A stretch of DNA of 64,000 nt from Candidatus Lustribacter sp. (GTDB taxonomy: Bacteria; Vulcanimicrobiota; Vulcanimicrobiia; Vulcanimicrobiales; Vulcanimicrobiaceae), in contig OZ255842.1 in NCBI GenBank assembly GCA_965277805.1, positions 928,001-992,000 of the forward strand, read 5' to 3'. A program made the position numbers and the translations under genes. Under the pieces are notes generated by a model. It was not told the origin of the DNA. It ran no database searches and worked only from the letters and a program-made list of their open reading frames with translations. Below are positions 3,234-59,342 of this stretch, in pieces (the stretch's first letter is position 1; every line of letters begins with the position of its first letter).

Positions 3234-4547
3234 ATGCGTTTTAGAATCGCGCGGTTCGTTGCGGCAATCGCCTTTGCCGTTATCGTGATCGCGCAGAACG
3301 CGTCGGCGCTGGAACTCGATTCGATCGCCAAGGCCGCGGCGAATTACACCAACCCCGATGCCAAGCTCCAAGCTATGTACCGTGCCGCGCTGCTCAACAC
3401 GAGCCGGCAGGCAACGATCGCAAGCGACGGCACCGCCTACGTGAAGACGGGCGACATTCCGGCTGAATGGCTCCGCGATGCAAGCGCACAAGTGCGCCCG
3501 TACCTGTACTACGCCAAGAGCGATCCGCAAGTTGCGCAATTGCTGCGCGAGATGATCGCGCGCATGGGCAAGTACCTGCAGATCGATCCCTACGCCAATG
3601 CGTTCACGCTCGACTATCGCGTGTGGGAAGAAAAGTTCGAGCTCGACTCGCTCGCCTATCCGATCACGCTGGCCTGGACGTACTGGAAAGAAACCGGCGA
3701 TACGTCGATCTTCACCGCCGATCTCTCGCTCGGCTTCGACAGAGCGCTCGAGACGATGGAGCGCGAGCAAGATCACGCCAAGAACTCCACCTACACGCAC
3801 AAGGAAATCCCGCAAGCCGGCAAAGGCAATCCGGTCAAGTATACGGGGATGATCTGGACCGGGTTCCGGCCCTCCGACGATGCGTGCACCTACAACTTCC
3901 TCATTCCTTCGGAGATGATGGCGGTCGTGGCGCTGGGCGAACTCGACGAGATCGAGCGCGACGTCTACCACAACTTGCTCAAGTCGCATCGCGCTTCATC
4001 GCTGCGCGACGAAGTGCAGACCGGCATCCAGACCTACGGCGTGGTCTTCACGCCCAACTACGGTTACGTCTACGCCTACGAAGTCGACGGACTCAACCAT
4101 GCGAACCTGATGGACGACGCCAACATCCCGAGCCTCTTGTCGGCGCCGTACATCGGCTACACGAAGGCAACGAGTTTCATCTACGCCAACACGCGCCGGT
4201 TTTTGCTCTCAAAAGACAATCCGACGTACTATAGTGGTAAGCTGGCAAGCGGGATCGGGTCGCCGCACACCAACGATGGCTGGGTGTGGCCGCTGGCGAT
4301 GCTGATGCAAGGCTTCACTGCAACGACGGAAAGCGAAAAGCGCGATGTCCTCAACCAGCTGCTCAACTCCGATCCCGGCGACCATCTGTTGCACGAATCG
4401 TTCGATCCGGACGATCCGGCCCGTTACTCGCGCGTCGACTTCGGTTGGCCCAACGCGCTGTTCAGTGAGTATGTCATGACGAATTTTTCAGGCGTTCCGC
4501 CGCTACCGGTGGGCTCGACCGCGGACTTGGATTTCCGTGGCGAATAA
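3234..4547 (+). CDS. Glycoside hydrolase family 125 (exo-alpha-1,6-mannosidase-like) with signal peptide
   Basis: 'TGDIPAEWLRDASAQ', 'WEEKFELDSL', 'GFRPSDDA', 'MDDANIPSLL', 'GIGSPHT', 'FGWPNALF'; N-terminal signal ending ASA. Confidence 0.88.
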   Translation: MRFRIARFVAAIAFAVIVIAQNASALELDSIAKAAANYTNPDAKLQAMYRAALLNTSRQATIASDGTAYVKTGDIPAEWLRDASAQVRPYLYYAKSDPQVAQLLREMIARMGKYLQIDPYANAFTLDYRVWEEKFELDSLAYPITLAWTYWKETGDTSIFTADLSLGFDRALETMEREQDHAKNSTYTHKEIPQAGKGNPVKYTGMIWTGFRPSDDACTYNFLIPSEMMAVVALGELDEIERDVYHNLLKSHRASSLRDEVQTGIQTYGVVFTPNYGYVYAYEVDGLNHANLMDDANIPSLLSAPYIGYTKATSFIYANTRRFLLSKDNPTYYSGKLASGIGSPHTNDGWVWPLAMLMQGFTATTESEKRDVLNQLLNSDPGDHLLHESFDPDDPARYSRVDFGWPNALFSEYVMTNFSGVPPLPVGSTADLDFRGE

Positions 4548-5841
4548 CAACGTGCTGCTCCCGCCGATCGAGCACAAACGCGCGGGCGGTGTCGACATCG
4601 TGCTCGGCATCCAATGGGGCGATGAGGGCAAGGGCCGCGTCATCGACTTGCTGGCGAAAGACTACGCGATCGTCGCGCGCTTCGGCGGCGGCGACAATGC
4701 CGGACATTCGATTGAGGTCGGCGATCGCAAGCTCGCGCTGCGCATCGTGCCCTCGGGCGCGCTCGTGCCGAGTGCCAAGCTGCACGTCGGCGCCGGGACC
4801 GTGATCTCGCTGAAGACGCTGATCGGCGAACTCGACGCGCTCGGCAAAATCGGCGTCGACGTCTCGCGCATCTCGATCTCCGATCGCGCGCAGGTCGTGT
4901 TCCCGTTCCATGCCGCCGTCGATCAAGCGATGGAACGTGCCCGCGGCGGATCGGCGATCGGCACGACCGGGCGCGGCATCGGACCGGCCTACGTCGACCG
5001 CGTGGGGCGCATCGGCATCACCGTCGGCGACCTGCGCGATCCGGGTGTGCTCACCGGCAAGATCCAGCAGTCCATGCAGGCTAAGGCGGCGCTGCTGGCC
5101 GGCGTGCCGGATGCGCCGAGCGAGCATGACGTCATCGCCGAGACCTTGGCCGCGGCACAGCGGCTGCTCCCGCACGTCGTCGACGGCGTCGACTATATCA
5201 ATGAAGCGCTCGAGCGCGGCGACAACATCCTGGCCGAGGGCGCGCAGGGCACGTTGCTGGACGTCACCTACGGTTCGTATCCCTACGTCACGAGCTCATC
5301 GACGATCGCGGGCGGGGCCTGCATCGGTCTCGGCATCGGGCCGGGCGCGGTACGCTCGGTCACCGGCGTCGTGAAGGCGTACTGCACGCGGGTCGGCGGC
5401 GGGCCGTTCCCCTCGGAGCTGCCCGACGCCGAGGCTAATGCGCTGCGGGAAGCCGGGCGCGAGTTCGGGGTCGTCACCGGTCGCCCGCGCCGCTGCGGTT
5501 GGTTCGACGCGGTGACCGCTAGGTATGCTGCCCGACTCAACGGGCTCGACCGGCTGATCGTCACCAAGCTCGACGTCCTCAGCGGCCTCGACCGGGTGGG
5601 CCTCGTCACCGGCTACAAGCACGCCGACGGCACCCCCGCCGGGGTCGAGTCGATGGGCGAGCCCGGTCTCCAGACCGAGATCGAATACCATCCCGGGTGG
5701 TCGGAAAATGTGCGCGACGTCAAGGAAGTCAAAAATTTACCAAGTGCTGCGCGGGCATATCTGGACCGGTTGGCAAATGTAACCGGAGTACCGGTCGCTC
5801 TGGTCTCTGTAGGACCTGAGCGAACGGCATTTGCGGCGTGA
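4537..5841 (+). CDS. purA: Adenylosuccinate synthetase
   Basis: 'GIQWGDEGKG', 'IGTTGRGIGPAY', 'EGAQGTLLD', 'TGRPRRCGWFD', 'TKLDVL'. Confidence 0.98.
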   Translation: MANNNVLLPPIEHKRAGGVDIVLGIQWGDEGKGRVIDLLAKDYAIVARFGGGDNAGHSIEVGDRKLALRIVPSGALVPSAKLHVGAGTVISLKTLIGELDALGKIGVDVSRISISDRAQVVFPFHAAVDQAMERARGGSAIGTTGRGIGPAYVDRVGRIGITVGDLRDPGVLTGKIQQSMQAKAALLAGVPDAPSEHDVIAETLAAAQRLLPHVVDGVDYINEALERGDNILAEGAQGTLLDVTYGSYPYVTSSSTIAGGACIGLGIGPGAVRSVTGVVKAYCTRVGGGPFPSELPDAEANALREAGREFGVVTGRPRRCGWFDAVTARYAARLNGLDRLIVTKLDVLSGLDRVGLVTGYKHADGTPAGVESMGEPGLQTEIEYHPGWSENVRDVKEVKNLPSAARAYLDRLANVTGVPVALVSVGPERTAFAA

Positions 5842-6000: not shown

Positions 6001-7680
6001 TTGGATCGTATAGGTTCTTCGTTCGGATCGTTTAGCGGTCGAGTACGCGACATATGGTCGTCGCAAGGTCCAGCGAACCGGATGATCATCGGAGCGCTCG
6101 GCGTTGTGATCATCGTCGGCATCGTGTTTTTCGGCTTTACGCGCTTTCGTCCGACGTCGTACTCGGTATTATTTTCGAACCTTGCGCCCGACGATGCCAG
6201 CGCCGTCGTAGCGAAGCTCGACGCGCAAAAGATTCCGCACAAGCTTTCCGCCGACGGCACGACGGTTTACGTTCCGTCCGACGTCGTTGCCGACGAACGC
6301 GTCTCGCTCGCCGGCGACGGCACGGTCAAAGGCGGCGGTACCGGCTTCGAGTTGTTCGATCGTACGAACCTCGGCATGACCGACACGCAAGAGAAGATCG
6401 CGAAGATCCGCGCGACCGAAGGCGAGCTGCAGCGCACGATCGGCGGACTCACGCCGGTTGAATCGGCGCGCGTTCACCTCGCGGTTCCCGATGCAACGCT
6501 CTATTCGACAACCCAAGAACCGACCACGGCGTCGGTCGCGGTCCGCACGAAACCCGGCGAGACGCTCTCGCCGCAGGAAGTCCGCGGCATCACGCAGCTC
6601 GTCTCCGGTGCGGTCGAAGGACTGCATCCCGAAAACGTTACGATCGTCAATCAGGACGGCACGGTGCTCGTGCCCTCGCCGTCGACAACCGGTCCCGACG
6701 GAACGCAGACCGCCGACGCGCTGAAGATGACGTCGGATCAGCTCGTGGCCAAACAGCGCTACGAAACGAACCTGCAAGAAAATATTCAAGGGTTGCTCGA
6801 TGCGGCCATCGGTTCGAAGCGCTCGGCCGTGCGCGTTGCAACCGACATGGACTTCGATGCCGGTCAGACCGACACCGAATCCTACGCGCCCAACGGCACC
6901 GTGCGTTCGTCGCAGACCGAACGCGAAGCGTTCCAGGGCACCGGCGGCGCTGCGCGTCAGCCGCCCATCGGCGTTCCCGGTACGACGACGAACGCGGTCC
7001 CGACCTATCAGGGCGTTGCGCAGAACACCGGCAACAGCAAGTACACGAAGTCGAAGACGACGACCAACTACGAGATCACGAAGACCACCGCGAAGCACAT
7101 CAACGCGCCCGGTAAGGTGACGCGCGAGTCGGTCGCGGTGCTGGTCAACGTTCCGAACGCCGCCGTCGCCCCGCCGCCGGGCGGTGGACCCGCAGCCGTT
7201 ACCGCGGCCAACTATACCGTCTCCGCCGCCGACGTCGCGAAGATCCGCAACGTCGTCGCAGCCGCCGCCGGCATCGATCCGACCCGGGGCGACGTCGTCT
7301 CGGTCGAGGCGATTCCGTTCGCGCCGCCGCCGGCCAGCGGCGTCGTCGCCCCGACCACGATCCTTGGTATCCCGGTCTCGGCGCTCATCGCCATCGCCGT
7401 GGTGCTCTTGCTGGCTGGTGCCGGCGCCGTCGCCCTCTCGCTCCGCCGCCGCGCGGTGCTGGCCACGACGGTCGACCTCCCATCGTTCGACTCGGCACTG
7501 GCCGACGAGCTGCCGTCCTTCGAAGAGCATCCGATGCTCGAAGGTTCGCCGGTCGTCGCCGCGCCGATCCGTTCCGCAGCCGATCTGACGCGCGAGCAAA
7601 TGATCGAATACGTGACGACCGTCGCGCAAGAAAACCCGGACAGTCTCGCCAAACTCGTCAAACTGTGGCTGGCGGAGTAA
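6001..7680 (+). CDS. fliF: Flagellar M-ring protein FliF
   Basis: Two TM segments, 'GFELFDR...GMTD', 'EGELQRTI', 'ARVHLAVP', 'PTTASV', C-terminal 'AKLVKLWL'; TTG start chosen after AAGGTG. Confidence 0.95.
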   Translation: MDRIGSSFGSFSGRVRDIWSSQGPANRMIIGALGVVIIVGIVFFGFTRFRPTSYSVLFSNLAPDDASAVVAKLDAQKIPHKLSADGTTVYVPSDVVADERVSLAGDGTVKGGGTGFELFDRTNLGMTDTQEKIAKIRATEGELQRTIGGLTPVESARVHLAVPDATLYSTTQEPTTASVAVRTKPGETLSPQEVRGITQLVSGAVEGLHPENVTIVNQDGTVLVPSPSTTGPDGTQTADALKMTSDQLVAKQRYETNLQENIQGLLDAAIGSKRSAVRVATDMDFDAGQTDTESYAPNGTVRSSQTEREAFQGTGGAARQPPIGVPGTTTNAVPTYQGVAQNTGNSKYTKSKTTTNYEITKTTAKHINAPGKVTRESVAVLVNVPNAAVAPPPGGGPAAVTAANYTVSAADVAKIRNVVAAAAGIDPTRGDVVSVEAIPFAPPPASGVVAPTTILGIPVSALIAIAVVLLLAGAGAVALSLRRRAVLATTVDLPSFDSALADELPSFEEHPMLEGSPVVAAPIRSAADLTREQMIEYVTTVAQENPDSLAKLVKLWLAE

Positions 7681-52417: not shown

Positions 52418-52657
52418 ATGGCCGCCATCACCTACACGCCGCAACAAGGGAAATCCGGGCCGAAGTTCACCTGCCCGCGCTGCCACCGGACCTACCCCTA
52501 TCCCGTTGACTACGATCGTCCGATCCGTTGTGAGTGCGGCTGGTGGTACACCAATGTCGGCCACGGCACGATCGTCGAAGAGTTCCGGCCGCGCATCGGC
52601 GGCTCCGACCCCGACGCTCCGCAATACGGGGAAGGCACGCAGCCCGAACGGCACTAA
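52418..52657 (+). CDS. Small zinc-ribbon-like hypothetical protein
   Basis: CPRC...CECG; ATG preceded by AAAGG; fills the gap between tyrS and hslO. Confidence 0.65.
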   Translation: MAAITYTPQQGKSGPKFTCPRCHRTYPYPVDYDRPIRCECGWWYTNVGHGTIVEEFRPRIGGSDPDAPQYGEGTQPERH

Positions 52658-53971: not shown

Positions 53972-54181
53972 CTACGAGCCGAACGAGTACTTCGAGACGC
54001 GCGGCTTGAGCGGTTGGTCGTCGTGCGCCGAGACGGTCTTGCGGAGCGCGGCGATCTCGTCGCCGTCGAGCTCGAAGCCCTCGGCAACAACGGCGGCTTC
54101 CGGGTCGCGCGCGAACGCCATCCGGAACGCTTCATCGTTGAGGTAGCGTTCGACGAGATCGGCTACGGCATCGCGGCTCAT
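53972..54181 (-). CDS. NHLP-clan (Os1348/Franean1_4349-like) putative peptide precursor
   Basis: 'MSRDAVADLVERYLNDEAFRMAFARDPEAAV...GFELDGDEIAAL' leader followed by 'LKPRVSKYSFGS'; alternative coupled start at 54214 (TGATG overlap). Confidence 0.72.
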   Translation of the reverse strand: MSRDAVADLVERYLNDEAFRMAFARDPEAAVVAEGFELDGDEIAALRKTVSAHDDQPLKPRVSKYSFGS

Positions 54182-54213
54182 GGGATGCCGTAAGAATTCG
54201 CGCGCTCGCGCCA

Positions 54214-56250
54214 TCAGCCTTTCTTTAAAACGTGCCGCGCATGTGCTTTTAATCTCGCGCGCTCGGTCCAAATGTCGTTGCACAGGCGGAAGAGCGCGAG
54301 ACCGCCGACGACGACCGCGAACACCCGGCCGAAGTATGGCACGGCGTCCGGCGGGACGATGCGTGCGACCCAGCCTTGGGCCGTGTAGCGATAGATGAAG
54401 AGCGTCCAGGCCGAGATCGCGCCGATGTACACGACCGCCCCGAGCGCGTAGAGCAGCTCGAACCGGTGGCCGCGCAAGCTAGCGCCGCTTCGCAGCGCGG
54501 GCCACAACCCGGTAGCGATCCAGCCCAGGCTCTTGCCGCGCAGATTCGGCCGCTCCATCGCGTCCATCAGCAGATAGTAGCCGTCGTATTCGAGCAGCGG
54601 GTTGAGGTTGCGCAGTACGGCGATGTACGACCAGAGCGCGAACACCCACGCCACTGCCGCGACCGTCAAGCTGGGCGCAAATAAAGCGAGGTACCCGGCC
54701 GCGCCGGCGAGCACGAGATTCACGAGAATTCCGCCGGCATCCACCAGCATGCGCTGCTCGCGCGTCGCGAGCCAGGCATCCGAGGTGTCGACGAAGAGCA
54801 TGACGCGAAACCAGAACCAGCCGAAGCCGACGCGATCGACGCGCGCGCCCGCGGCCTTTGCCGCCACGCCGTGGCCGAGTTCGTGCAAGATGATCGCAAC
54901 GGCGGCGAGCGGGATCATGAAGAAGCCGACGCGCGCGACCGTTGCGGCGTGCAAGAGCGTGGCGGCGGAGCGCTGCGCCATCGAGATGAACGCCGCAAAC
55001 CCGCCGGCTGCGAGGACGAGCGTAACGATGATGCCGGCGCGCGTAAATGCAAAGCGCCCGACGCTCTGATAGAGTGCGTTGAAGAAACGGTCGCAGCCGT
55101 TGAGGGAAAACGTGTACTCCATCACGCGAAAAACCGCCTCGACGAAACGCCGGTGGCGGCTGCGCGCGGGCGCCGTCGTGTCGAGCCGTTCGAGGTCGAT
55201 GAACTCCTCGCGCGCGAGGTGGCGCACGACGTCCATCACGACGTCCGGCGCGAGCGTTTTGTATTCGAGAAAGAGATCCATCGTGATATCGCGCAGCGTG
55301 TGCACGCCGTCGAGATGGTTCCAGACGAACGCGCCCTCGCGCGAAAGACGGAAATACGTGCCGCGCGCAGGATCTTTTAGCGTCCAGATCGTGGTGCCGT
55401 CCGCGGTCGTGCGATCGTGCAGTTCCACGCCGGGCTTGCGACGCGGCCGGCTGCGCGCTTGCATCAATGCGACCAGGTGTTCGGCGAGTGCGCCTTCGCT
55501 CGCCATCGCTTCGAGCACGTCGTCGCGGCGCAGCACGAGCAATTCGGCGTCGCTGATCACGCGCACGGTCGCGTTGCGCGGTGCGCCCGTCAGCAGCGCG
55601 GCTTCGCCGAAGAGCATCCCCGTGCGGAGCTTGGCTAAATGCCGCTCCGCGTCGCCCGAGGCGTCGACGACCTCGAGTTCGCCGTGCCGGATGAGATAGC
55701 ACTCATCGCCGGGATCCCCCTGACGGATGATGATTTCGCCGGGCGAGGCATGCCGAATCTGCACGCGCTCGGACAAGCGGGCGACTGCCCCGGGCGAAAG
55801 ATCCCCGAGTAGCGTGGCGGATTTGATGAAGCGGCCGACAGCCATCCGCTCGGCTGCCGCCTTAAGTTCCGGCCGGGCGTTGTCATCGTCGATCGCCTGC
55901 GCGAACGAGGCGCCGTCGAGCCGTAGCAGCGTGACCGGGGTGAGTGCGACGACGCTCGCCGTGCGGCGCTCCGCCCCGGCCACGATCGCGACCTCGCCGA
56001 AGAGTTCGCCGGGCCCGAGCACCGCGATCGGCAACGGTCCGCTCTTGCCGGCAATTTGCACTTCGAGCCGCCCGTCGATCACGACGTATGCATCGATGCC
56101 GGCCTCGCCCTCGCGAATCACGACGTCGCCCTTGGCCGCCGTTTCGCGCGTTGCGTTCGCCGCGAGCGTATCGAGCGTGTCCGCCGAAAACGAACGAAGC
56201 TGCCACACGTGCGCGAGGATCGGCGCAGCGAACGAGGGCGTGCTCGTCAT
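54214..56250 (-). CDS. Fusion protein: 2x cyclic-nucleotide-binding domains + PqqD/RRE + M50 (site-2) intramembrane metalloprotease
   Basis: 'GELFGEVAIVAGAERRTASV', 'GMLFGEAALLTGAPRNATV', 'KDPARGTYFRLSREGAFVWNHLDGVHTLRDI', 'LHELGH', 'NLNPLLEYDGYY'. Confidence 0.88.
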   Translation of the reverse strand: MTSTPSFAAPILAHVWQLRSFSADTLDTLAANATRETAAKGDVVIREGEAGIDAYVVIDGRLEVQIAGKSGPLPIAVLGPGELFGEVAIVAGAERRTASVVALTPVTLLRLDGASFAQAIDDDNARPELKAAAERMAVGRFIKSATLLGDLSPGAVARLSERVQIRHASPGEIIIRQGDPGDECYLIRHGELEVVDASGDAERHLAKLRTGMLFGEAALLTGAPRNATVRVISDAELLVLRRDDVLEAMASEGALAEHLVALMQARSRPRRKPGVELHDRTTADGTTIWTLKDPARGTYFRLSREGAFVWNHLDGVHTLRDITMDLFLEYKTLAPDVVMDVVRHLAREEFIDLERLDTTAPARSRHRRFVEAVFRVMEYTFSLNGCDRFFNALYQSVGRFAFTRAGIIVTLVLAAGGFAAFISMAQRSAATLLHAATVARVGFFMIPLAAVAIILHELGHGVAAKAAGARVDRVGFGWFWFRVMLFVDTSDAWLATREQRMLVDAGGILVNLVLAGAAGYLALFAPSLTVAAVAWVFALWSYIAVLRNLNPLLEYDGYYLLMDAMERPNLRGKSLGWIATGLWPALRSGASLRGHRFELLYALGAVVYIGAISAWTLFIYRYTAQGWVARIVPPDAVPYFGRVFAVVVGGLALFRLCNDIWTERARLKAHARHVLKKG

Positions 56251-58197: not shown

Positions 58198-58201
58198 AGC
58201 A

Positions 58202-58236
58202 GAAGGCCCCGGCGATGATGCCGAGGCCTTCCTTTG
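58202..58236. terminator. Putative intrinsic terminator hairpin
   Basis: GAAGGCCCCGGC-GATGAT-GCCGAGGCCTTC with short T-runs on both strands. Confidence 0.5.
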
Positions 58237-58245
58237 ATTATCTGA

Positions 58246-58446
58246 TTATCGTTCGTCCGTATACGTGCTGATGATTCGGTTGCTGTGGATTTCTTCTTTG
58301 TGGTACTCGGCAACAAGGGCGAGCCATCCGTCCCAATCCCGGAACTTTCGCTCGGTTCGGCGGCGCGATTCTTGCGCGTTGTAGACCTGGCCGGGGAACA
58401 TGTAACGCGCGCGACGGTGGTTGCTATCTCTCGGGAGTAAGTTCAT
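58246..58446 (-). CDS. Small hypothetical protein in the lower-GC islet
   Basis: ATG at 58446 preceded by GGGAGG; no recognisable motif. Confidence 0.35.
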   Translation of the reverse strand: MNLLPRDSNHRRARYMFPGQVYNAQESRRRTERKFRDWDGWLALVAEYHKEEIHSNRIISTYTDER

Positions 58447-58573
58447 CGCTAACGCCCCTCCCTTCGATGCGATTTGCGGAGACGTCAAGGTCCATTTTTC
58501 CACTTGCATGCGTTCCGAAACAGAGAAACGTTAAGCGCTCGAAAGAAAAGGCTACCGCGCTCGATCTGTGGGG

Positions 58574-59194
58574 TCAGTCGTCTGGAGTGAAAGGTTCCAT
58601 CCTCACGTCGTTCATGTTTATCGGAAGCTCATTAAACGTACGTTGAGGGCCGGCAAGTAATTGGAGCGGCAACGAATCGTCAGAAGCGTATTCGGTCTTG
58701 CGATATTCATTGAAGACATTTTTGAACGAAACGGTCAGCATCGAGTTTTGCAGCAGGTTGCCGTCTCGTGCAGCGCTCTTCATGTACGTGACAAATCGAA
58801 CCGGCTCTGATTGTCCGGCAACAAGAGTACCAATAGGTTCCCCTTGGCGGTTGATGTTCAACCCTGGAACACTGAGAAAGACGACACCACTTAGGGCAGG
58901 CGCCGAGGACGTCGGATTTAGTGCCGTTGCCTCGACAATGAGTTCGTGAGTGCCCGGGATGAAGTAAATCCTGGCGTCCGTTAGCACGATGAGGCCGGTA
59001 AGCTGTTGCCGATGGTGCAAATCGTCTTGGGCGGTTTGCCGCGCAGCATCCTCGCGGGCAAGCTTCGCATCCTTTGCCATTGATGACGTTCGGAGTGCAA
59101 GCCAGAATGTGCCGAGTGCTAGCAATCCTGTGCAGACCGCAACATAGAAGTCCGGAGTGTGCCAGATGTCAGGTTCGGGCGGGAAGATGAACAC
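58574..59194 (-). CDS. Hypothetical protein with an N-terminal TM helix (lower GC)
   Basis: 'FYVAVCTGLLALGTFWLALRT' TM followed by a soluble domain; codon usage atypical for the window. Confidence 0.65.
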   Translation of the reverse strand: MFIFPPEPDIWHTPDFYVAVCTGLLALGTFWLALRTSSMAKDAKLAREDAARQTAQDDLHHRQQLTGLIVLTDARIYFIPGTHELIVEATALNPTSSAPALSGVVFLSVPGLNINRQGEPIGTLVAGQSEPVRFVTYMKSAARDGNLLQNSMLTVSFKNVFNEYRKTEYASDDSLPLQLLAGPQRTFNELPINMNDVRMEPFTPDD

Positions 59195-59218
59195 GTATAC
59201 CTACAACCAGACGCGTGA

Positions 59219-59260
59219 GGAAAAACGAAAAGGCACTCTACGCTGCGGCGTGAGTGCCCT
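59219..59260 (-). terminator. Intrinsic terminator downstream of tRNA-Pro
   Basis: GGCACTC...GAGTGCC stem followed on the - strand by TTTTCGTTTTT. Confidence 0.7.
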
Positions 59261-59265
59261 CTCAA

Positions 59266-59342
<77 letters not shown>

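Follow-up and report, generated by a model that had tools for sequence, protein, structure and literature searches.

We analysed a 64,000-nt stretch of DNA (the window) from the soil bacterium Candidatus Lustribacter sp. Its minus strand carries a gene in which two cyclic-nucleotide-binding (cNMP) domains, a RiPP recognition element (RRE) and a membrane site-2 (M50) protease are fused, and beside it an ORF for a small NHLP-clan protein. The two-gene arrangement read from the sequence in the original prediction was confirmed. On balance we favour the reading that the pair is a module, in which the 69-aa cytoplasmic NHLP-clan protein would be the dedicated substrate of the fused, possibly cNMP-gated, membrane protease.

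The fusion gene was delimited by its open reading frame and domain profiles and spans 54214..56250 (stop codon included), encoding 678 aa. Pfam and NCBIfam profiles, motif positions and alignment upheld the architecture originally described: two cNMP domains, a PqqD-like RRE and a site-2 protease with intact motifs. Among 8000 candidates scored, 304 homologues had E ≤ 1e-5. The protease core (residues 365–678; 54217..55158, minus strand) was recognized from motifs, hydropathy, profiles and fold matches. Its zinc-site motifs, HELGH (residues 456–460) and NPLLEYDG (550–557), preserve the HExxH and NxxPxxxxDG patterns, and H456, E457, H460 and D556 are invariant in 13/13 aligned homologues, at identities down to 38%. 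A hydropathy scan of the core gave five hydrophobic helices above threshold. Pfam Peptidase_M50 matched residues 450–524 with 26.0 bits, slightly below its cut-off of 27.2. The genome holds no second copy of the protease; the five other matches were cNMP-only proteins.

The best NCBIfam family for the fusion protein was daptide_HExxH (NF041824; E 3.1e-39, 135.2 bits, residues 270–613), at a score short of the equivalog cut-off of 300 bits. The YydH/LiaK/EpeP epipeptide protease family (NF058609) gave 51.4 bits vs a cut-off of 225, which places the protein outside that family. Among known systems, the daptide RRE-peptidase MpaP/DapP comes closest. According to the available account of daptides, an RRE-fused intramembrane site-2 protease encoded next to a small precursor removes the leader (10.1101/2023.03.08.531785), and the statement of the original prediction that RRE-fused intramembrane proteases remove leaders in some RiPP pathways has published backing for daptides. 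The window protein has the same organization, with a PqqD-like RRE directly N-terminal to an M50 core with zinc ligands, and its gene likewise adjoins that of the small protein. In contrast to a daptide cluster, the genes flanking the pair do not include DapB, the oxidoreductase (oxidative decarboxylase), the aminotransferase or the methyltransferase. Its peptide is of the NHLP-clan type, lacks the ELExMEAP motif, and has Ser rather than Thr as its C-terminal residue. The protein also adds about 260 residues of tandem cNMP domains, which the available account does not mention for daptides (10.1101/2023.03.08.531785).

The fold assignments of the RRE and of the protease core were based on VIA-align. 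The core matched an RseP orthologue (7w6z, Z 7.9), SpoIVFB (8vjl, Z 7.6) and MjS2P (3b4r, Z 7.2). With the RRE–protease half as the query, Foldseek returned SpoIVFB at E 7e-3 and no match at E ≤ 0.001, and a sequence search against solved structures returned no match at E < 0.1. The RRE (residues 270–348; 55207..55443, minus strand) was identified from Pfam PqqD, secondary structure and VIA-align. The Pfam PqqD score on residues 292–342 was 25.6 bits, above the cut-off of 23.4, and the topology is three strands followed by three helices. Its fold matches were a lasso B1 protein with leader (6jx3; Z 11.4, rmsd 2.2 A, 82 aligned), TbiB1 (Z 10.4) and PqqD (Z 9.7).

The cNMP domains A (about residues 12–125; 55876..56217, minus strand) and B (about residues 142–260; 55471..55827, minus strand; best Pfam stretch 166–251) form the N-terminal part of the protein. 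Pfam cNMP_binding (PF00027) covered them in two stretches (E 9.6e-43, 144.5 bits). The FGE...R-x-A phosphate cassettes claimed for both domains were found, with FGE at residues 84 and 214. The cassette residues G85, E86, R96 and A98 of domain A and G215, E216, R225 and A227 of domain B are invariant in the 13/13 homologues, again down to 38% identity. Two domains, each with the Gly-Glu and Arg-x-Ala residues, make this a tandem module of the PKA-R/PKG type. Consistent with this, the best Foldseek matches of the region were the tandem CNB domains of PKA-R and PKG (5j3u, a PKA regulatory domain, at E 1.6e-17), and domain B gave PDB profile matches to PKA/PKG regulatory domains. In domain A a Thr follows the cassette Arg, in domain B an Asn; specificity for cAMP vs cGMP cannot be read from the sequence of the predicted domains. 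The same genome encodes five class III cyclase domains. The full-length model (pTM 0.52) does not fix the placement of the cNMP domains against the RRE or the protease.

The tandem cNMP region is present in 110 of the best 150 representatives of the RRE–protease half, so the architecture is no one-off. We found no report in the searchable literature of a cNMP domain fused to an RRE-protease, or of a link from cAMP or cGMP to peptide processing. TIGR03896 ('bacteriocin-type transport-associated protein') matched residues 147–258 with 75.4 bits, vs a cut-off of 161.05. It shares the two cNMP-binding domains, and its annotation links it to bacteriocin-type peptide export, but it describes a stand-alone 317-position protein with no protease fusion.

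The partner gene lies at 53972..54181 (minus strand, stop codon included) and encodes a 69-aa protein of the Os1348 family. NF038399 scored 49.8 bits (E 2.6e-13, cut-off 40) and 49.3 bits in a genome-wide scan. Of the predicted 69–80 aa NHLP-type ORF, the clan assignment stood but the longer form did not: the ATG of the 69-aa form is present in 6/6 aligned loci and most database relatives are called at that length, whereas the start giving 80 aa, an ATG at 54214 that overlaps the protease stop, occurs in this genome only. Scores for Pfam Frankia_peptide (24.1 bits, cut-off 48), the canonical NHLP leader TIGR03793 (15.7 bits, cut-off 50.9) and the Nif11 leader TIGR03798 (14.1 bits, cut-off 32.3) were all below threshold; as judged from the sequence, the likeness to NHLP and Nif11 leaders does not go beyond the clan. 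A profile of the small protein reached the sequence of the Os1348 crystal structure (6lk7) at E 4.1e-6 and also nitrile hydratase alpha at E 2.5e-5. Two weaker NF038399 matches in the same genome were rejected as partners; they are LigA subunits adjoining LigB-like dioxygenase genes.

The prototype of NF038399, Os1348 of Pseudomonas sp. Os17, is an 85-aa presumed precursor whose loss lowers antibiotic activity (PMC7726476). It shares with the window peptide a helical, leader-like build that ends in a flexible C-terminus. In the available description its locus also encodes a SagB-like dehydrogenase, a GNAT acetyltransferase and a soluble HExxH peptidase, and adjoins an efflux system; no RRE-M50 protease or cNMP domain is listed there (PMC7726476). 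No GNAT, HExxH peptidase or SagB-like dehydrogenase gene was found beside the window gene.

Co-occurrence of the peptide with this architecture, which had been put forward as a check on the original prediction, was borne out. In a family sample of 201 genomes, nine (G156, unpublished, among them) carry the protease at E ≤ 1e-30. NF038399 was above cut-off in those same nine and in 0/192 others, with peptide and protease within 2 kb of each other every time. Since the identical 9/201 genomes carry both genes at this distance, the pairing is not due to chance. Across phyla, the peptide was present in 13/16 loci of the protease subfamily. It lies downstream of the protease in 5/5 close relatives. 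In Ktedonobacterales, Chloroflexota, Rhodoferax and Legionellales-like loci it is either upstream or divergent; the pair recurs in Chloroflexota and Proteobacteria with differing gene order. No NHLP-clan ORF was found within about 5 kb in L023, L025 and L026 (3/16 subfamily loci). L025 and L026 do have small adjacent ORFs with K-S-[KR] and aromatic tails, but these matched the peptide profile with an hhalign probability of only 38%, over 27 columns, and were not counted as its kin. We found no other ORF family common to loci of different phyla.

The pair is flanked in the window by genes for HU, Hsp33, a VOC protein and an NMT1-type binding protein. The HU and VOC flanks agree with the original reading, HU being convergent downstream and the VOC/glyoxalase gene upstream on the same strand as the protease. 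HU, Hsp33 and TyrRS are kept in 5/5 orthologous loci. The VOC gene is upstream in only 2/5 of them and was rejected as a member of the module; thiolase and ETF-QO genes by the peptide in four Legionellales-like loci were read as housekeeping synteny among related genomes. Genome G145 of the same genus (94% complete) has HU–Hsp33 and lacks the pair, which shows that the module is dispensable. Scanning the locus gave 0 promoter-like sites and 5 terminator-like sites vs 4.1 expected, an uninformative result, and no RNA run containing the locus was found.

We also modelled the complex of the two proteins. In the model the peptide sits on the RRE, a binding that had been put forward as a check on the original prediction, and the peptide tail lies at the zinc site; the model passed its controls (ipSAE 0.71, 0.62 and 0.61; best control 0.00). 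In the calibration of the method, the ipSAE mark used was reached by 58/80 solved complexes and by 2/110 mismatched pairs. At least 84% of contacts agreed between runs, and the partner pLDDT was at least 71. The contacting end of the peptide is its last 14 residues, QPLKPRVSKYSFGS (residues 56–69; 53975..54016, minus strand), which comprise a predicted RRE-docking strand, a basic-x-S-K motif and a 5-residue tail. In 17 aligned peptides, L58 is invariant and R61 nearly so. Peptide residues 56–58 are predicted to contact RRE strand 298–301, and residues 60–61 to contact residues 488–493. The modelled interface extends to peptide residue 67 and would include H456, E457, H460 and residues 553–556 of the HExxH and NPxxxxDG motifs. 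Resemblance to solved RRE–leader and SpoIVFB–pro-sigmaK complexes may account for part of this result.

From these models and from knowledge of the family we infer the following sequence of events, including cleavage, its position, its control by nucleotide and the function of the product. The RRE would capture the peptide, with the helical leader on the RRE helices and residues 56–58 added as a strand to RRE beta-3. From there the chain would track the site-2 core along its conserved beta-hairpin/VDTSD segment, bringing the C-terminal tail to the zinc site. Cleavage at or close to the conserved basic-x-S-K motif would then set free the 5-residue tail and leave the helical domain trimmed. SpoIVFB is gated by CBS and RseP by PDZ, and the two N-terminal PKA-R-like cNMP domains could act as a gating domain in the same way. 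Processing would depend on cAMP or cGMP from the class III cyclases of the genome, a form of control suggested by the conserved phosphate-binding residues. SpoIVFB and RseP share with the window protein the fold and motifs of the protease core, a soluble sensing domain fused to the membrane core, and a substrate fed as an extended strand. In contrast to the window protein, they lack an RRE and act on sigma or anti-sigma factors; the window protein has an N-terminal tandem cNMP module as its putative sensor.

The small protein could instead be a regulator with a cytoplasmic role of its own, for example as a dimeric binder like Os1348, that is switched on or off by regulated intramembrane proteolysis when cNMP triggers its clipping or sequestration at the membrane, no peptide leaving the cell. 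We regard this as possible, if rather unlikely. The protein is conserved along its whole length and not in its leader alone, and Os1348 is described in the available account as a folded six-helix dimer (PMC7726476; 6lk7). Among the best 120 peptide relatives, 44 stop exactly at the basic-x-N-K motif and have no tail, so that the relatives cannot all have tail release as their common function. No exporter, receptor or tailoring gene linked to the pair was found at the locus in this genome, and the fold matches are to SpoIVFB and RseP, site-2 proteases being classically signalling enzymes. On the other hand, 51/52 relatives (cluster representatives chosen by leader identity alone) terminate in Y[ST]FGS, and the tails of other lineages vary as core peptides do. 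An RRE is, moreover, a hallmark of RiPP pathways, and a ComQ-like enzyme in relatives points to a modified peptide product.

The complex model shows binding and not cleavage, and this leaves room for a further reading, which we consider improbable: the small protein might be an adaptor or plug that blocks the RRE and the entrance to the active site and is set free by cNMP, the real substrates being other (membrane) proteins. The C-terminus of the tail-less relatives would indeed occupy the modelled scissile region. However, the loci of different phyla share no linked gene that could encode a conserved candidate substrate, and the conservation of the tail speaks against a mere plug. In the closest characterised relative, as far as the available account goes, the RRE serves the peptide that the protease cleaves (10.1101/2023.03.08.531785).

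The claim that no tailoring enzyme lies beside the pair held within the genus but not beyond it. No polyprenyl-synthase-like gene was found at the window locus or in five close relatives, and the two-genes-only arrangement holds for this genus. Such a gene, ComQ-like, is present in four relatives, L018, L021, L107 (G011) and L108 (G156, unpublished). These genes show 31–52% mutual identity, and the peptides of the same relatives share a conserved [MIV]DW motif. In this the four resemble the ComQ/ComX and PalQ/PalX systems, in which a polyprenyl-synthase-like gene stands beside the peptide; the window pair differs from that type, having no adjoining enzyme and a peptide without Trp. PalX is an NHLP-type precursor with an 8-aa C-terminal core, and in the available text PalP is a histidine kinase and not a protease, the PalX/ComX protease not being identified there (PMC10853753). 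That the window pair is what is left of a decaying ComX-like prenylated-peptide system, with little function after the genus lost the enzyme and the Trp, would fit these four loci, the best own-genome match to the enzyme (only 46.7 bits, about 81 kb away), the patchy distribution and a frameshift in the protease of one relative (L012), but is very unlikely given that no catalytic, nucleotide-binding or docking residue is lost, that the protease orthologues of the genus are 77–96% identical with no stops in 4/6 genus genomes (the breaks in L014 fall in an assembly with frameshifts across many genes), and that the leader is kept by 52 peptide cluster representatives, 51 of which also keep the tail.

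The pair may, as the original prediction proposed, serve in peptide signalling. In its boldest form, which we put forward tentatively and think doubtful, the window protein would be the first intramembrane protease to be gated by a second messenger: higher cytoplasmic cAMP or cGMP would open the RRE-guided site-2 protease and release, perhaps for export, an unmodified five-residue extracellular signal, while the same chassis elsewhere would release prenylated or longer peptides. The form found in the window is the simplest, with one protease, one 69-aa putative substrate and no tailoring enzyme, and therefore offers a clean in vitro test system for nucleotide-gated intramembrane proteolysis. 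RREs are already known from RiPP leader peptidases. An RRE and a site-2 protease fused to a PKA-like tandem cNMP sensor would wire cAMP or cGMP directly to peptide processing. On the boldest reading, a nucleotide signal inside the cell would in this way become a peptide signal between cells, within an uncultured soil phylum.

The protease is encoded by an open reading frame (ORF) of 678 aa at 54214-56250 on the minus strand. Pfam cNMP_binding matched the protein twice (E = 9.6e-43), PqqD matched residues 292-342 (25.6 bits; cut-off 23.4), and Peptidase_M50 scored 26.0 bits over residues 450-524, slightly below its cut-off of 27.2. The top NCBIfam match was NF041824, the daptide intramembrane metalloprotease (residues 270-613, E = 3.1e-39), at 135.2 bits, well short of its equivalog cut-off of 300 bits. 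FGE motifs are located at residues 84 and 214, HELGH at 456 and NPLLEYDG at 550. In an alignment of 13 homologues with identities down to 38%, the phosphate-cassette residues G85, E86, R96 and A98 and G215, E216, R225 and A227 were invariant, as were the HExxH residues and D556. Five hydrophobic helices were found by hydropathy between residues 407 and 654. Since domain matches, motifs, invariant residues and hydropathy agree, the original prediction, two cNMP-binding domains fused to a PqqD-like RiPP recognition element (RRE) and an intact site-2 protease, was right in all checkable particulars.

A small ORF directly downstream of the protease, on the same strand and ending at 53972, matched NF038399 ('Os1348 family NHLP clan protein') with 49.8 bits, above its cut-off of 40. 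In the Pfam/NCBIfam scan it did not reach the thresholds of the canonical NHLP, Nif11 and Frankia_peptide models. It had been described as an NHLP-clan ORF of 69-80 aa; the clan and the shorter form stand, and the longer form is confined to this genome. The ATG of the 80-aa reading overlaps the protease stop codon (TGATG, 54212-54216) and would lengthen the peptide by 11 residues and couple its translation with that of the protease; five relatives have no ATG at the matching position. Because the ATG of the 69-aa form is kept in 6/6 aligned loci and 69 aa is also the length annotated for most relatives in databases, we took the gene as 53972-54181 (minus strand).

Searched against solved structures, a profile of 17 such peptides matched 6lk7 (E = 4.1e-6), an 85-residue entry titled 'nitrile hydratase, alpha chain' that agrees with the crystal structure of Os1348. 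Further matches were nitrile hydratase alpha subunits and an NHLP leader chimera. The NHLP-clan model cross-reacts with LigA, consistent with the weaker matches of the profile to LigA-domain RiPP precursors. Elsewhere in the genome, NF038399 has two sub-threshold matches, both to Pfam LigA subunits (L002, 1384-1755, and L003, 1462-1776; contig C1 near 4.453 and 4.055 Mb) that are encoded after LigB-like extradiol dioxygenase genes. The C-terminus of the peptide family follows one plan: a conserved Leu, a basic-x-[SN]-[KH] motif and a tail that varies from 0 to ~12 residues and is far longer in Actinomycetota peptides. The tail is missing in 44 of the best 120 relatives. When relatives were picked by identity over the first 55 residues alone (≥ 64%), 51 of 52 ended in Y[ST]FGS.

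To what extent do the two genes travel together? A word-indexed search (8000 candidates scored) yielded 304 protease homologues at E ≤ 1e-5, and most of those listed had the same Pfam combination. When 1.84 billion representatives were searched exhaustively with just the RRE-protease half, 9533 proteins reached E ≤ 0.001, of which 421 reached E ≤ 1e-30. The tandem cNMP region was full in 110, partial in 21 and absent in 19 of the best 150 matches; 17 of these 19 were shorter than 450 aa, and several were fragment-like. Among 201 sampled genomes of the family, nine carried the protease (E ≤ 1e-30), namely the window genome, six of the seven others of its genus and two from other genera (8/200 without the unpublished genome G156). 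NF038399 was matched above cut-off in exactly these nine and in 0 of the other 192, each time no more than 2 kb away from the protease. Of 151 genomes sampled across the phylum, only the window genome and one other gave a full-length match. Across phyla we counted 16 fetched loci (L010-L014, L017-L026 and L028) in which the protease aligned with the greater part of the window protein, with a match running from the cNMP region into the core. Iterated profile search detected an NHLP-clan ORF in 13 and none in L023, L025 and L026. The proposed association of peptide and protease was thus recovered at both levels.

In the window's genus the peptide gene follows the protease; Ktedonobacterales, Chloroflexota and Rhodoferax have one or two copies of it upstream, and in Legionellales-like loci it is divergent from the protease. 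An all-against-all ORF comparison of 27 loci gave no additional family common to these phyla. The Legionellales-like small proteins of L019 (4623-4805), L020 (4501-4683), L022 (4463-4645), L024 (4673-4852) and L028 (2879-3076) have no tail and stop exactly at the basic-x-N-K motif; four of the five genes are divergent. A thiolase gene adjoins those of L019, L020, L022 and L028, followed by ETF-QO in the first three. Two cNMP-RRE-M50 loci, L025 and L026, have pairs of M16 peptidase genes at their flanks and contain small ORFs (4439-4633 and 6964-7173 in L025, 9533-9727 in L026) in which a K-S-[KR] motif precedes a Trp- or Cys-rich tail; the relation of these ORFs to the peptide family is weak (hhalign 38%).

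HU, Hsp33 and TyrRS genes follow the pair in 5/5 same-genus loci, and the upstream VOC gene is retained in only 2/5. Because the pairing persists while neighbours vary, and HU-Hsp33 persists in a same-genus genome without the pair, the pair behaves as a self-contained accessory unit. The L012 protease gene has a single frameshift near residues 556-573 (about 7660-7670) between intact neighbours. L014 looks like an error-rich assembly, since frameshifts affect HU, Hsp33, NMT1, TyrRS and the protease. Within the window, a 79-aa ORF (52418-52657, plus strand) with CxxC and CxC motifs, resembling a small zinc ribbon, separates TyrRS and Hsp33. Within 58200-59342, a stretch of lower G+C content (0.52-0.59 versus ~0.66 elsewhere), with a 206-aa ORF (58574-59194, minus strand) inside it and tRNA-Pro(GGG) (59266-59342, minus strand) beside it, may be a small inserted island.

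The full-length AlphaFold model of the protease had a pLDDT of 80.3 and a pTM of 0.52; its first 260 residues resemble the tandem CNB domains of PKA-R and PKG. Residues 262-678 modelled alone gave 84.3 and 0.68. The RRE in this model consists of three strands followed by three helices, and its top matches were RREs solved with leaders (6jx3, Z 11.4; TbiB1, Z 10.4; PqqD, Z 9.7). The membrane core matched RseP, SpoIVFB and MjS2P at Z 7.2-7.9, values that are middling for helical proteins yet agree with the motifs. To model the complex, residues 262-678 were combined with zinc and the 69-aa peptide, using alignments for both proteins. The predicted docking passed its controls (ipSAE 0.71, 0.62 and 0.61 versus 0.00 in all three), with at least 84% of contacts shared between runs and a partner pLDDT of at least 71. 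In the calibration of the method, the docking mark was reached by 58/80 solved complexes and 2/110 mismatched pairs, counts that are only rough here because own alignments and a ligand were used; part of the score may also derive from solved complexes of RREs with leaders and of SpoIVFB with its substrate. In the model, RRE strand 298-301 carries peptide residues 56-58, among them the invariant Leu, and the conserved segment 488-493 carries residues 60-61; the interface extends to residue 67 and takes in H456, E457, H460 and residues 553-556. The model supports docking of the peptide with its tail at the zinc site.

On balance, we lean towards a mechanism in which the RRE would capture the small protein, the site-2 core would cut it at or near the basic-x-S-K motif, and the tandem cNMP module would act as gate. 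PDZ and CBS are the gating domains of RseP and SpoIVFB, respectively, and the cNMP module would play the equivalent role. With five class III cyclase domains, besides 13 cNMP-domain matches, the genome should be able to make the ligand. The product may be a released peptide, for which the strictly kept five-residue tail and the variable tails of other lineages speak. The tail-less forms, the lack of an exporter or receptor at the pair and the folded prototype Os1348 of Pseudomonas sp. Os17, described as a six-helix dimer whose C-terminal end is disordered (PMC7726476), speak for a regulatory switch acting on the helical protein itself, which we consider less probable than the mechanism above. 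That the small protein serves as adaptor or plug we consider improbable, and that the pair is a decaying remnant, very improbable.

The lack of a tailoring enzyme beside the pair, part of the original prediction, holds for the window locus and fails for four relatives, in which a polyprenyl-synthase-like gene adjoins peptide or protease: L018 (Chloroflexota), L021 (Rhodoferax), and L107 and L108 (the latter unpublished), which represent two further genera of Eremiobacterota. These genes share 31-52% pairwise identity; the closest match in the window genome, ~81 kb away from the pair, reached just 46.7 bits. Peptides of the four loci (three of them aligned) have in common an [MIV]DW motif ~17 residues before the end, where the window peptide has no Trp. 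Because both synthase-like gene and Trp motif are absent here, the window's genus carries a reduced two-gene form of a seemingly ComQ/ComX-like three-gene module found elsewhere. In one Chloroflexota-type branch of cNMP-bearing proteases, a small zinc-ribbon ORF takes the place of the peptide. Such ORFs (~60-100 aa, CRFCGR...CG.C) lie just downstream of the protease in L039, L047, L056, L058, L061, L062, L064 and L068; in L062 and L064 there is, in addition, an NHLP-clan ORF whose tail is Gly-rich. In L033-L071, from Micromonosporaceae and further Actinomycetota, ORFs that measure 1000-1250 aa from stop to stop match the window protein at RRE-M50 only, without the cNMP region, and Frankia_peptide-like ORFs ~0.2-1.5 kb downstream have the same leader and motif and long Gly-rich C-terminal regions.

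Os1348 itself is co-encoded with a GNAT, a soluble HExxH peptidase and a SagB-like dehydrogenase, and its loss lowered antibiotic activity (PMC7726476); this gene context is unlike that of the window peptide. Already known are RRE-fused site-2 proteases that remove leaders (daptides; bioRxiv 10.1101/2023.03.08.531785), M50 enzymes in other RiPP pathways (epipeptides and pearlins, according to a review) and NHLP-type precursors with a very short core, such as PalX (PMC10853753). Among the searchable main texts of open papers, we found none in which a cNMP domain is linked with an RRE or with a site-2 protease. What the window adds to these systems is a minimal module of two genes, a clean phyletic pattern of co-occurrence and a docking model.
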